From the sequence record PQ438391.1: a stretch of DNA of 64,000 nucleotides, one strand, 5' to 3'. Below the pieces are notes generated by a model. It was not told where the DNA came from, ran no database searches, and saw only the letters and a program-made list of their open reading frames with translations. Positions 50,576-55,336 of this stretch are shown here, piece after piece. A program made the translations under genes and the position numbers. How positions within the stretch are numbered: the stretch's first letter is position 1; each line of letters begins with the position of its first letter. This DNA comes from Escherichia phage vB_Eco_T-01.

Positions 50576-51367
50576 TTATACTCTTGAACCATATATTGTG
50601 CCAACTTTAGTCCAAGTTGGAGCATTACCAGTAACAGCTTTACCAGCCGCACCGCCCGAGTGAACAGTTCCTCCAGTACCGCCTTGAATATATGAAGACT
50701 TGCCAGCAGCTCCCAAATCTCCACCATTTCCTCCATAGTGAACCCCAGAAACAGTACCTTTACCAGGAGCAGAAATTGTACCAGCAGATGCTGCTGCTGC
50801 GCCACCTCCTGCTGCGCCAGCTGCGCCAAATGGACGACCTCCGCCGCCACCAAATATCATATCCATTTGAGGGAAAGGATGGTATCTAGCACCAGCGCCG
50901 CCACCGCCACCGCCACCAATAATACCGTTATTGTTTATTCTTAAACGAGTTCCAATTCCGTTATTTATTGCAGTTCCTCCTGCTCCACCAGCAGAGTTAC
51001 TTCCGCCATTTCCTCCCCGACCCAATACATGAACCCCGCTATTAATATTTAAGGTAACATACGCATTAGTTAATGAGCTAGGAAAATCTAAGCATGGAAC
51101 ACCAGTAGATTGAGAAACGATATTGCCTGTAATTGTAATAACAACAGGAGTACTGCCTTGGGCTTTTATCCAATTTATTAGTGTGTCTTTATTATAAGAA
51201 TTGCTAGCACCAACGCTATAATATACTTCTTTAGATTGCCCAGCCATTGAACTCATCCAACCGGGAACTGAAACACGGACAGCTTTCATCGCAGCATCCA
51301 TCCAGCGTTGTCCAGTTTCATTCACGGCAGATTCACCAATCCAACCAGGAACACCTACAATTGCCAT
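50576..51367 (-). CDS. 38: gp38 receptor-recognising adhesin of the long tail fibre (T2-type, glycine-rich motifs)
   Basis: 263-aa ORF with several polyglycine tracts (GGGGGGG, GGGGRPFGAAGAAGGG) separated by variable segments. Confidence 0.8.
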   Translation of the reverse strand: MAIVGVPGWIGESAVNETGQRWMDAAMKAVRVSVPGWMSSMAGQSKEVYYSVGASNSYNKDTLINWIKAQGSTPVVITITGNIVSQSTGVPCLDFPSSLTNAYVTLNINSGVHVLGRGGNGGSNSAGGAGGTAINNGIGTRLRINNNGIIGGGGGGGAGARYHPFPQMDMIFGGGGGRPFGAAGAAGGGAAAASAGTISAPGKGTVSGVHYGGNGGDLGAAGKSSYIQGGTGGTVHSGGAAGKAVTGNAPTWTKVGTIYGSRV

Positions 51368-51397
51368 TAAAAATCCTTAGAGGGCCGAAGCCCTCTT

Positions 51398-54300
51398 TTA
51401 CATAAGTTTAGATTCAAGTTCTTTTACACGAGAAGAAAGTGTTTTCACAGCTTCAACCAGAAGAGCAATCTGGGCTTGAGAAGAAACAGTGAGTATTTTA
51501 TTACCCTTACTGTCTTCTGTTTCATGGACAGCTTCTGGTAAAACGTCTTGTAACGTTTGAGCTATAATACCCGCTTCAGTTTGAACAGGCTCACCGCCTA
51601 TATATTCAGCTTTGTCATAGATTAAACCATCAAGTTGTTCAACCTTTTCGAGCGCGTTTTCAATAGGCTTGAAATTAGATTTCAAACGAATATCAGAACG
51701 AATATAAACGTTAGGAGCGTTGACGTTTTTCTCGGAATAAACTTCACCCGAGGTGAATCTAACAACTTTAACATTGTTAGCCCACGCTTCTAAAAGCCCA
51801 TCACCTACTTGTCTAAAACCGGTATCGCTATCACCTATTGCAATTGAGTTACCACCCCATCCGTTGGATGTGTTAATACCAAGGGCACCGGTAGAACCGC
51901 AAGCCAATTTAGGAGCATAAAATGTTCCGTCCATATCAAAAGTCCAACGAGCCTGTTGCCCCGATGCGTTGTCACCACGCATGCGAATAATGCCTTGGCG
52001 CCAAGTACCAGAAACACCTAACCATCCAAATTCAAACGATTGTCGATAACCCGCGTCAGTTAAAAAACTGTATCCAGAAAATAGCGGGTAATAAGCTTGA
52101 CTTGTCTTGGAAATGCCACCCGTATTCGCTAAGAATGCAGAATTGTCGCGAGTCACATCTGAAATAGCAGAAAAGCTAACACTCCATTGTCCGGCAGCTT
52201 TAACTCGTGAATTAATGTTTCCATTAATAGTAATATCTTTATCAAAAGAAGTATTTTCGCCAAGACGAACAGTACCAGCAGTCATATCGATTGAAAACGG
52301 TCGTTTTCCATTCCAATCACCTTCAGTTGCTTTATTATCGCCGTCTGAAGAGTTTTTGTCAGTCAGTAAAATATAGAAGCTTCCACCGTCATTTCGAAAT
52401 AAAACGGAATTAGAACCTGATCTATCAGAATTACTCGTAATACGAAGACCCGTTTGGTTATTAATAGCAATTTCAGATTCTGCTACATAACGTTTTACTT
52501 TACCTGTGTCTACCAGGTTGTTAAGCATGTTAGCTACTTGGCCTTTAACATAATTAGCCGGCAAAGAATCTACCGGGTCTTGAGTAGGACCAAAAGCGCC
52601 GATAACTTTTACGGTAGCATTATCAACTGTATGCCAAGTATAAGCTAATTGGTTGGCATAAGTACCCGATTCAACATAGATATCATATGTATTTCCTGAG
52701 GTATTAACTACAGCAATATCAGTAAGACCTGCAGCTGTTCTGGTATACATCACGGCGTTTAAACCTGCTGGGCGGTCATTACCAGTACGAAGAACAATTT
52801 CTGTTATAGCACACTGTGTAAACAGTCCAGTATTAAATCCTTTACCACCAGTTATAGTAAATGAAACAGTAGAAGTAGATTGTGGCATCGTTACTGTAGC
52901 GAATTTATACCATCCAGCAGTTGCACCGTATGTTACAAATCCGGAATTGACCTTACGGTTTAATGTGGTATTCAAGTTAGCAAAATTACCAGAACCACCT
53001 GTAATATTACCGTCTGTTCCGATACGAATATTTCCAGCACCTAATTTACCAGGAGAGTAAAAATCACCGTTTTTATTAAATTCCCAACCTAAATCCTTTA
53101 TAATCGCGCCAGTAGAACCGCCATCACCACCTTCATGATAATGAACTCTAAAATTACCGCCATTAATTAAAGTACCAATAGAATAGCAACTATTATTTTG
53201 TACGTATCTCTGTTTAACAATTGGAACGTAAGTACTTGTATCTGTGCGATTAATATTCATATAGAACGGAGCACGGACGTTTTCATTATTTTGCGAGGCA
53301 AATGAACCAGCCCCTGCAGGTCTAACGGCATCAGTGCATTCTGCATCAATATATGTCGACTGCCCTAATTGCATTCTAAAGTTGGCATTAATGCGAGAGT
53401 TACTGTTTATCGTAGTTAAAGCATTATTTTGATCTACTATAAAAGAATCTCTTCCTAACCCAACCATGCCATCGCTTAATCCTATTCTCACAGGTCTTAA
53501 AGAGCTGTGAATGTCTCCACTTTCGCCTTCATTTTGATTGGTTGGAATAATGTAAAAGTTACTTTCAGAACGACGGAAAATAGCGCCATATTCGGCGTTC
53601 CAAATTCTTAATGCATTTGCTGTTCCACCAAATTTAGCTTGTCCGTTTACAGATAATCCATTATTTGCAACTAAGCTTGATTCGGTTGTAATAGAACCAG
53701 AAGTAACAATACTACCTGAAGTTAATAAACCACCATTAACTCGGAGTTGAATAGGCCCGACAGTCGAACCAGGTGCAGGAGCTACGCGTTGAGAATAAAA
53801 ATGGTAACCTTGCCCATCTGATACTTCAAAGACTGTTTCACGATTACGATCACCAGATGCGTTAAATGAATTTCCCCATGCTTTAACTGTAACAGGGCTT
53901 TTGTTTTGACCTGCGCGAGTACCACTGTTCCAATATATACTTCTAGTACCATCTGCAGCCGTCGGGGCGTTAAACTGGAATCCCTGATTATCAGGTCCAT
54001 CAATAATTATGCCTTTATTAAGACGAAAAGCTAATGTAGAATTAATACTTCCAGTTGCGGCATTAAAGCTAATACTTTCACCGCCGGTGGTTAACTTCAA
54101 TATACCTGGGTTAACGTCTACACCTTCCTGAGTATTAATATTAGTTTTGCCTTTACCGCGGAAATAATGACTCATTTTACCGCCAGCATTGTACCCAATA
54201 TGCGTCTGGCCGTCTCCAGCATTGTTATTATCAGCTTGCGTTTGAACAGACAAGAAAGCGGCATTAGTGCCAGGCATAATCCATGTGGTGCCTTGGTCCT

Positions 54301-55336
54301 CGGAACGACCAAATATACCTTTACGAGTACTACGGAAACTGTCAGGAGTAATAGAAGCAACAGAATATCCACCGCCAACTAGATCAAATACACCAGTTTT
54401 TTTGTATGACAAGCCAGTTACAGTGTCACCGAGAACAAGATATTTATCGCCCATTACACCGACGTTGCCATAATCACTAGACGGGAAATTTGTAGTGAAT
54501 GTACCTAATGCAAGGCTATTACGGCCTGCCATTCGTCCGTCATTACGAATGCCATATTGTTTAGATGATGGAGTATTACCTGTCCACCAAGACATTTCAT
54601 CAGCCTGGCCAGTCTGAGCAGTACAAAGCTCATGCCACATAGTGCCACCTGATTTAGCTCGAACTTTACGAAGATAGTTTACACCATTTGTTTCACCGGT
54701 TCCAGGATAAACATACTGAACTAATGATTGTGAATCGTATTGTCCAAAGGCTTTAGAATCATGATTAATTAAATTAACACTAATAGTTGGTGTACTAATA
54801 GAAGTTAAAGCAGTTAATTTGCGTGCCTGGAAGATACCGCCATCAGTAGAAATGAAATGAAATTCTGAATTTTGAGCCCCTGCTGCGGTTCCTTGACGAA
54901 CGCGCATTGTAATTACGCCTTCATTTTCAGACTGTGGTTTTGAATATAAAACCCCTCTCTCCGATCCATTTGTATTTTCAAACCAAAGATGGGCATTTGC
55001 AGTATCATTTATTGCTCTTGTATAAAATGAACCGGATGTTGATCTGAATACTGTAGCAGAAACAATATTACTTGCCGTAATAGTACCACTTGTAGAAAAA
55101 TTTCCAAAGTTGTTTATTGGTCCATTGACGCGTAAAGTTCCATCAATAGTCACATTTCCATCAATTTGACCGCCTTTAGCAATACCTAGATCAATGATAT
55201 TTCCTGTATCATCTTTAGTAAAAAGTGTTCTATCTTTTAAGTTTATAGCCAATTCACCTTCGGCTAATACTGAAGCAGCAGGACGTGCACCTGCGGTTTT
55301 GCTTCTTTTAAATTGTATTTGTTTTAAAGTAGCCAT
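51398..55336 (-). CDS. 37: gp37 distal long tail fibre subunit
   Basis: 1312-aa ORF in a 34-35-36-37-38 cluster. Confidence 0.9.

Follow-up and report, generated by a model that had tools for sequence, protein, structure and literature searches.

The tail-fiber locus of Escherichia phage vB_Eco_T-01 (sequence record PQ438391.1) lies in a 64,000-nucleotide (nt) stretch, here called the window, and its genes 37 and 38 occupy positions 50,576 to 55,336. We read this locus, with a probability of about 0.9, as the distal tip module of a Tequatrovirus long tail fiber of the T2/T6/S16 type, in which gp38 is predicted to cap the gp37 trimer and to bind the nucleoside channel Tsx of E. coli, and in which a UUCG hairpin between the two genes is assigned a putative role in the transcript. 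The T2/T6-type reading is correct but already known: the system, the adhesin sequence, and the likely receptor are all on record. The only new element is a recombinant gp37 allele, which combines a shaft of the type found in phage Kha5h with a tip/chaperone patch of the type found in Shigella phage Phaginator.

The sizes of the two open reading frames (ORFs) given in the initial annotation, 1312 residues for gp37 and 263 for gp38, are borne out by their coordinates. gp38 matches the Pfam families GP38 (PF05268; E = 8e-69, 232 bits, cut-off 25) and Gp38_N (PF21721; E = 7e-18, 64.7 bits, cut-off 25), the former being present in all 120 homologues listed and the latter in nearly all. In the PDB, the sequence matches S16 gp38 (6F45_D, E = 1e-48) and the receptor-binding domain of PP01 gp38 (9V85), and over its full length it is 63% identical to gp38 of T2 and 56% identical to that of T6. 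Glycine accounts for 23% of all residues and for 34% across residues 116–263, with runs at G151–G157 and G173–G177 and ten shorter GG or GGG stretches. In an alignment of 63 homologues (A2), the glycine-rich blocks are conserved and residues 160–172, 185–193, 203–211, and 223–237 are highly variable. Column entropy in this alignment, which defines all segment boundaries used here, resolves five glycine-rich motifs (GRMs) that are conserved, together with four hypervariable segments (HVSs), as in the published layout (PMC3157838); in HVS1, strong variability is confined to residues 123–126, 128, and 132. Composition and alignment together thus confirm the polyglycine motifs and intervening variable segments that the initial annotation had described.

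An AlphaFold model built on the same 63 homologues has a mean predicted local distance difference test score of 93. A Foldseek search of the PDB with this model returned S16 gp38 (6f45_D; E = 1.8e-23, template modeling (TM) scores 0.78/0.82) and PP01 gp38 (9v85; E = 2e-19), with TM scores ranging from 0.72 to 0.85 across the S16 and PP01 adhesin matches, and nothing beyond these adhesins below E = 1. The modeled fold is that of S16 and PP01, with three domains and a polyglycine-II sandwich. At the N-terminus, the model places helices at residues 10–18, 23–29, and 38–41, each preceded by a tryptophan (W9, W22, and W37). These tryptophans are invariant in alignment A1, and the segment comprising residues 1–45 is 96% identical to T2 and 67% identical to T6. 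In S16, the three tryptophans of the gp38 N-terminal domain plug into the gp37 trimer (PMC6851490), and by analogy W9, W22, and W37 are the predicted docking residues here. The proposal of a T2/T6-style adhesin is in this way upheld by Pfam, by PDB entry 6F45_D, by identity to T2 and T6, and by the AlphaFold/Foldseek result. A scan of IMG/VR with the gp38 alignment yielded 17 loci, with no close relatives; these loci served for the hairpin comparison only.

Only residues 1–844 of gp37 align with T4 gp37 in BLASTP (T4 residues 1–848, 69% identity), and the remainder is not T4-like. Residues 464–671 match the gp34 fragments 4uxe and 5nxf in the PDB. Distally, phmmer aligns residues 1159–1310 with the S16 gp37 tip (PDB 6f45_A, E = 7e-9), and the Peptidase_S74 family PF13884 covers residues 1214–1271 (E = 9.8e-15, 55 bits, cut-off 22). 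This domain is also found in gp37 of T2, T6, and AV114 and is absent from T4 gp37, which has Collar and Phage_fiber repeats instead. In the endosialidase and T5 pb1 work, the S74 family is defined by a Ser-Lys dyad (S-x4-K) at the start of the domain, and gp37 carries such a dyad as Ser1214 and Lys1219 in the motif YIR-SDIRLK. By the Ser-Lys mechanism of the family, the predicted scissile bond is R1213/S1214. In T2 and T6, the gp37 C-terminus is reported to be proteolytically removed before gp38 capping (PMC3157838, citing Drexler 1986). Identity over gp37 amounts to 97.1% with Kha5h, 89% with Bas43, and 63% with full-length T2 gp37.

The lengths quoted in the initial annotation for the T4 proteins (1026 residues for gp37 and 183 for gp38) are correct. 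Its view that a long gp37 marks the T2/T6 type does not hold, because T6 gp37 has only 994 residues and is shorter than its T4 counterpart, and we rejected gp37 length as a class marker. Judged by sequence, the marks of the class are a C-terminal Peptidase_S74 domain on gp37 together with a GP38 adhesin. T6 gp37 (AP018814, locus 7706..10690) shares little with gp37 of vB_Eco_T-01 beyond the first 68 residues and the S74 tail; fiber length therefore varies widely within the adhesin-bearing class.

That the variable segments of gp38 specify the outer-membrane receptor, as the initial annotation had it, agrees with published genetics (PMC3157838; bioRxiv 10.64898/2026.04.02.716166). Exchanging the portion of gp38 that begins at HVS2 changes which porin is used (bioRxiv 10.64898/2026.04.02.716166), and in PP01 the gp38 loops touch the loops of OmpC (PMC12892980). 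For the present allele, the receptor is most likely Tsx, because the specificity domain (residues 116–263) shows 100% identity with that of AV114 and 99% with that of Bas43. AV114 and AV115 use Tsx, as determined from deletion mutants (PMC10844046), and Tsx is listed as the primary receptor of BASEL phage Bas43 TadeuszReichstein (PMC8594841, supplementary file 5). Over the whole protein, AV114 differs only by V48I, Y49H, and V52I, residues 53–263 being identical, and the sole difference from Bas43 is Q228K in HVS4. Three deposited phages, vB_Eco_TB37, vB_Eco_Geo, and JLBYU24, have a gp38 that is 100% identical, and the exact sequence occurs on 10 public contigs; other close relatives (AV114/AV115, Bas43, Kha5h, Phaginator, and RB18) are 98–99.6% identical. 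HVS2 also contains a PF(P/S)QM core common to the Tsx binders T6 and Bas39.

We propose the following assembly (coordinates in Table 1). Genes 36, 37, and 38 would probably be read from one late transcript; a search for the late-promoter pattern across 49000–62500 found just two sites, at 56031..56038 before gene 36 and at 61105 before gene 34, and since the consensus occurs nearby only before these two genes, gene 38 is probably translated from the 36-37-38 transcript. gp37 would trimerize with the aid of its own C-terminal intramolecular chaperone, which would then cut itself off at R1213/S1214, freeing 99 residues. One gp38 monomer may then cap the exposed end of the trimer through its N-terminal three-helix domain and so, by analogy with S16, be present at the fiber tip of the virion. 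Its polyglycine-II sandwich would display the hypervariable loops, which would attach to an E. coli outer-membrane protein, most likely Tsx. The hairpin between genes 37 and 38 would serve as structural punctuation that bars 3' exonucleases, keeps the ribosome-binding site of gene 38 open, or both.

Table 1. Annotated features of the tail-fiber locus (window coordinates; residue numbers refer to the protein named)
Feature	Position	Strand	Basis or remark
gp34	57194..61063	-	1289 aa
gp35	56070..57185	-	
Late-promoter consensus (T4), TATAAATA	56031..56038	-	upstream of gene 36; nearest one upstream of genes 37/38
gp36	55345..56007	-	Pfam Phage_T4_gp36
Gene 37, distal long-tail-fiber subunit	51398..55336	-	ORF, 1312 aa
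gp37 shaft, aa 1-844, shared with T4 gp37	52805..55336	-	BLASTP
Gp34_trimer-like domain, gp37 aa 492-617	53486..53863	-	Pfam PF21446
Recombinant patch in gene 37, ~aa 1137-1271 (tip and first half of chaperone)	51474..51966	-	493 nt
gp37 distal tip predicted to be kept after processing, aa 1159-1213	51698..51862	-	should carry gp38, judging from the S16 structure (PMC6851490)
Peptidase_S74 intramolecular chaperone, gp37 aa 1214-1312	51401..51697	-	Pfam PF13884
C(UUCG)G tetraloop hairpin, 7 bp, AGAGGGC-UUCG-GCCCUCU	51379..51396	-	between gene 37 stop codon and gene 38 ribosome-binding site
Shine-Dalgarno AAGGA of gene 38	51374..51378	-	abuts 3' foot of hairpin; 6 nt before ATG
Gene 38, receptor-binding adhesin	50576..51367	-	ORF, 263 aa; Pfam GP38 and Gp38_N
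gp38 N-terminal attachment domain, T2 subtype, aa 1-45	51233..51367	-	Pfam Gp38_N, aa 1-42
gp38 specificity domain (polyglycine-II sandwich), aa 116-247	50627..51022	-	entropy map and fold match to S16/PP01 gp38
GRM1, gp38 aa 116-122			entropy map
HVS1, gp38 aa 123-150	50918..51001	-	between GRM1 and GRM2; naming after PMC3157838
GRM2, gp38 aa 151-159			entropy map
HVS2, gp38 aa 160-172, ARYHPFPQMDMIF	50852..50890	-	
GRM3, gp38 aa 173-184			entropy map
HVS3, gp38 aa 185-211	50735..50815	-	
GRM4, gp38 aa 212-222			entropy map
HVS4, gp38 aa 223-237, KSSYIQGGTGGTVHS	50657..50701	-	unlike T6 and T2
GRM5, gp38 aa 238-247			entropy map
Conserved tail of gp38, aa 248-263			entropy map
t holin	49887..50543	-	Pfam Phage_holin_T

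The locus is a mosaic. Across the 4.76-kb region, identity to Kha5h amounts to 97.1%, with mismatches that are unevenly spread: the stretch between 55400 and 51930 has 0–1 differences per 100 nt, and between 51929 and 51525 the divergence from both Kha5h and Bas43 rises to 14–40%. The patch at 51474..51966 shows 100% identity to Phaginator (OL615012) and about 77% to Kha5h and Bas43, and its flanks are near-identical to Kha5h. By sequence comparison, gene 37 is a routine recombinant of a Kha5h-like shaft and a Phaginator-type tip patch, and a collection of 15 billion proteins lacks this exact gp37. Phaginator was isolated on Shigella boydii. Conceivably, its type of tip changes how gp38 is seated or adds a contact to lipopolysaccharide (LPS) or O-antigen, which, if true, could give vB_Eco_T-01 a host range unlike that of other phages with identical gp38; we consider this a long shot. 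Within gene 37 of Kha5h (Kha5h locus 3020..3032), 13 nt are annotated as an 'attP prophage attachment site (type 2851)'; this is almost certainly a chance match, too short by far to be meaningful.

Compared with positions 5501..6292 of AV114, a Mosigvirus, gene 38 (50576..51367) has 95% nucleotide identity, the t gene 74%, and the 5' end of gene 37 62%. Gene 38 is thus far closer to AV114 than its neighbors are, which points to a recent exchange of the adhesin cassette between Mosigvirus and Tequatrovirus; such exchange is known behavior of the T-even tail-fiber locus (PMC3157838). AV108, a Krischvirus, is said to carry a similar gp38 yet use OmpA. A tblastn search of its 24-kb tail-fiber locus found no gp38, an absence accounted for by the reported location of Krischvirus gp38, ~55 kb away from gene 37 (bioRxiv 10.64898/2026.04.02.716166); gene 37 and the holin are separated there by a slot (17887..18126) with only a 79-residue hypothetical ORF.

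The gap between genes 37 and 38 measures 30 nt (51368..51397). The initial annotation was right to place a UUCG hairpin here, and its extent of 51381..51396 has to be corrected, as two outer pairs were missed and the stem reaches 51379. The hairpin has a minimum free energy of -12.4 kcal/mol. The whole gap folds at -13.4 kcal/mol, compared with a mean of -2.1 (standard deviation 1.9) for random 30-mers of window composition, none of 5000 being as stable. An Rfam search of 49500–56500 at E <= 1 gave no family matches. In T2, T4, T6, Bas43, AV114, Kha5h, and most divergent T4-like contigs, the ribosome-binding site of gene 38 is immediately preceded by a GC-rich hairpin, with UUCG, UUU, AUU, AAC, or GUAAU as the loop and with stems that partly differ (for example, AGGGGC/GCCCCU vs UGGGGC/GCCCCA). 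Two divergent T4-like contigs in IMG/VR have no hairpin, and in them the stop codon of gene 37 runs into the start codon of gene 38 (TAATG); the element is thus widespread without being universal.

T4 mRNA is where UUCG tetraloops were originally described, in the late 1980s (summarized in PMC4371310). In the window, CTTCGG occurs 32 times against 13.2 expected, a number reached by none of 100 shuffles, and 13 CUUCGG tetraloops sit on stems of 6–9 bp. Examples on the plus strand lie at 2463..2478, 4829..4848, 6099..6118, 11409..11430, 13358..13375, 20231..20250, 26434..26455, 37277..37294, 42558..42575, 42787..42802, and 45232..45247. Up to ~45 kb all such hairpins are on the plus strand, and both of those in the tail-fiber block are on the minus strand, matching the gene direction there. 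The second of these two, between gp35 and gp36 (56045..56066, minus strand), is longer (GAGGGAGCC-UUCG-GGUUCCCUU, 9 bp, -14.6 kcal/mol) and is followed by UUUUCUU and then by the late-promoter consensus TATAAATA; together with this consensus (56031..56038) it resembles a junction of terminator and promoter.

For the 37/38 hairpin, a barrier to 3' exonucleases and/or an insulator of folding is the most likely function. This role is favored over termination because the U run begins 5 nt beyond the stem and lacks conservation in T4; the hairpin probably falls short of a full terminator. A rho-independent terminator or attenuator reducing read-through to gene 38 is unlikely, although it has several points to commend it. 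A permissive consensus scan does flag the hairpin as terminator-like (a 7-bp stem with five GC pairs and the tail AAGGAUUUUU); the lack of a late promoter between genes 36 and 38 makes gene 38 dependent on read-through; and reduced read-through would fit a ratio of three gp37 to one gp38, the S16 tip having one gp38 per gp37 trimer (PMC6851490). However, the U5 run is separated from the stem, the homologous hairpin of T4 has AAAUAUG after it instead of a U tract, other relatives vary in this respect, and many of the 13 CUUCGG hairpins in the window are not followed by a U tract either.

Several observations weigh against our overall reading. In RB68, the single HVS3 substitution Q206L is enough to switch the receptor from OmpF to OmpW (bioRxiv 10.64898/2026.04.02.716166). 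Depending on the host background, LPS or further co-receptors may come into play. With a tip patch that shares only ~77% nucleotide identity with Bas43 and Kha5h, the fiber-tip context of gp38 is identical only to that of Phaginator. A looser test of hairpin stability, on a 66-nt context fold, gives only z = -1.74, and the comparison on the 30-nt gap was taken as the decisive one. Finally, covariation is weak: RNAalifold finds double changes in four of six pairs, for 12 hand-cut hairpins in a crude alignment with register shifts. Because one substitution in HVS3 can switch the receptor, a receptor call by similarity needs identity of the loops, and this identity exists with AV114; the case for Tsx rests on it rather than on general similarity.

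It is quite improbable that gp38 is a T2-type adhesin with a primary receptor other than Tsx (for example, OmpA, OmpF, or FadL), or that it also needs a second receptor. Such a reading could appeal to the T2-like N-terminal and middle parts of gp38, T2 being a phage that uses FadL, to an HVS4 that resembles neither that of T6 nor that of Bas39, both Tsx binders, to the porin switches that single substitutions in gp38 can bring about, and to PST, which has a T6-like gp38 and uses Tsx plus OmpA (PMC3157838). Set against this, the entire specificity domain is that of the Tsx-dependent AV114 and lies one residue from that of Bas43, and identity to the T2 loops is 8% in HVS2, 11% in HVS3, and 0% in HVS4.

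The idea that gp38 is a T4-type assembly chaperone outside the virion, with gp37 itself binding the receptor, draws on the position of gene 38 in the slot of its T4 namesake (between gene 37 and t) and on several database records in which close homologues go by the name 'tail assembly protein' or 'distal long tail fiber assembly catalyst', but it is next to inconceivable and was rejected, since gp38 has no similarity to the 183-residue T4 gp38 (best BLASTP alignment 19 residues, E = 13), belongs strongly to the family and fold of the S16/PP01 adhesins, and is paired with a gp37 that ends in an S74 chaperone and lacks the Collar and Phage_fiber needle tip of T4, the 'assembly' labels being inherited annotation. 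The full-length alignment to T4 gp38 that the initial annotation had named as its refutation is accordingly absent.

The tail-fiber block as a whole runs on the minus strand in the order gp34, gp35, gp36, the 1312- and 263-residue ORFs, and the t holin. A near-consensus sigma-70-like site (TTGGCA, an 18-nt spacer, and TATAAT; 11 of 12 matches; within 50544..50604, minus strand) overlaps the gene 38 stop codon at the 3' end of the gene; it is followed, just upstream of the t holin start, by AATAAATA, which agrees with the late-promoter consensus at 7 of 8 positions. The two elements could act as a promoter for t.

In practical terms, Tsx as the expected receptor indicates what resistance mutants to anticipate and what partner phages to choose for a cocktail with vB_Eco_T-01. 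The occurrence of the same gp38 in a Tequatrovirus and a Mosigvirus adds a further case of tail-fiber cassettes moving between T-even genera.

Compared with known systems, the 37/38 hairpin resembles the CUUCGG hairpins of T4 mRNA in its C(UUCG)G loop, GC-rich stem, and intercistronic position on the coding strand, with no apparent difference. T4 also shares the gene positions, the gp37 shaft, and a UUCG hairpin in the 37/38 gap, but its gp37 tip, with Collar and fiber repeats and no S74 domain, binds the receptor itself, and its gp38 is unrelated. The S16 gp37-gp38 tip (PDB 6F45) and PP01 (PDB 9V85) have the same three-domain fold and polyglycine-II sandwich, including the conserved glycine helix 151–157, whereas gp38 identity is only ~40%, the loops differ, and both phages bind OmpC. 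T6 likewise combines a GP38 adhesin with an S74-tailed gp37, has a Y-x-PFPQM core in HVS2, and has the receptor class that is predicted for vB_Eco_T-01; it differs in a gp37 that is similar only in the N-terminal 68 residues and weakly at the tip, in its gp38 N-terminal subtype, in HVS4, and in a UUU hairpin loop. T2 has the same architecture, with a gp37 of 1341 residues that ends in S74, a gp38 of 262 residues, and a 30-nt gap with the same hairpin, yet its adhesin binds FadL/OmpF through unrelated specificity loops, and both gp38 and gp37 are only 63% identical overall. The closest systems are those of Geo, TB37, JLBYU24, AV114, AV115, Bas43, Kha5h, Phaginator, and RB18, in which the gene order 36-37-38-t, the 30-nt gap, and the hairpin are all the same. 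Within this near-identical group, what differs is the partner gp37, which is 97% identical to that of Kha5h and has a tip patch identical only to that of Phaginator, while the gp38 of Geo, TB37, and JLBYU24 is the very protein of vB_Eco_T-01.

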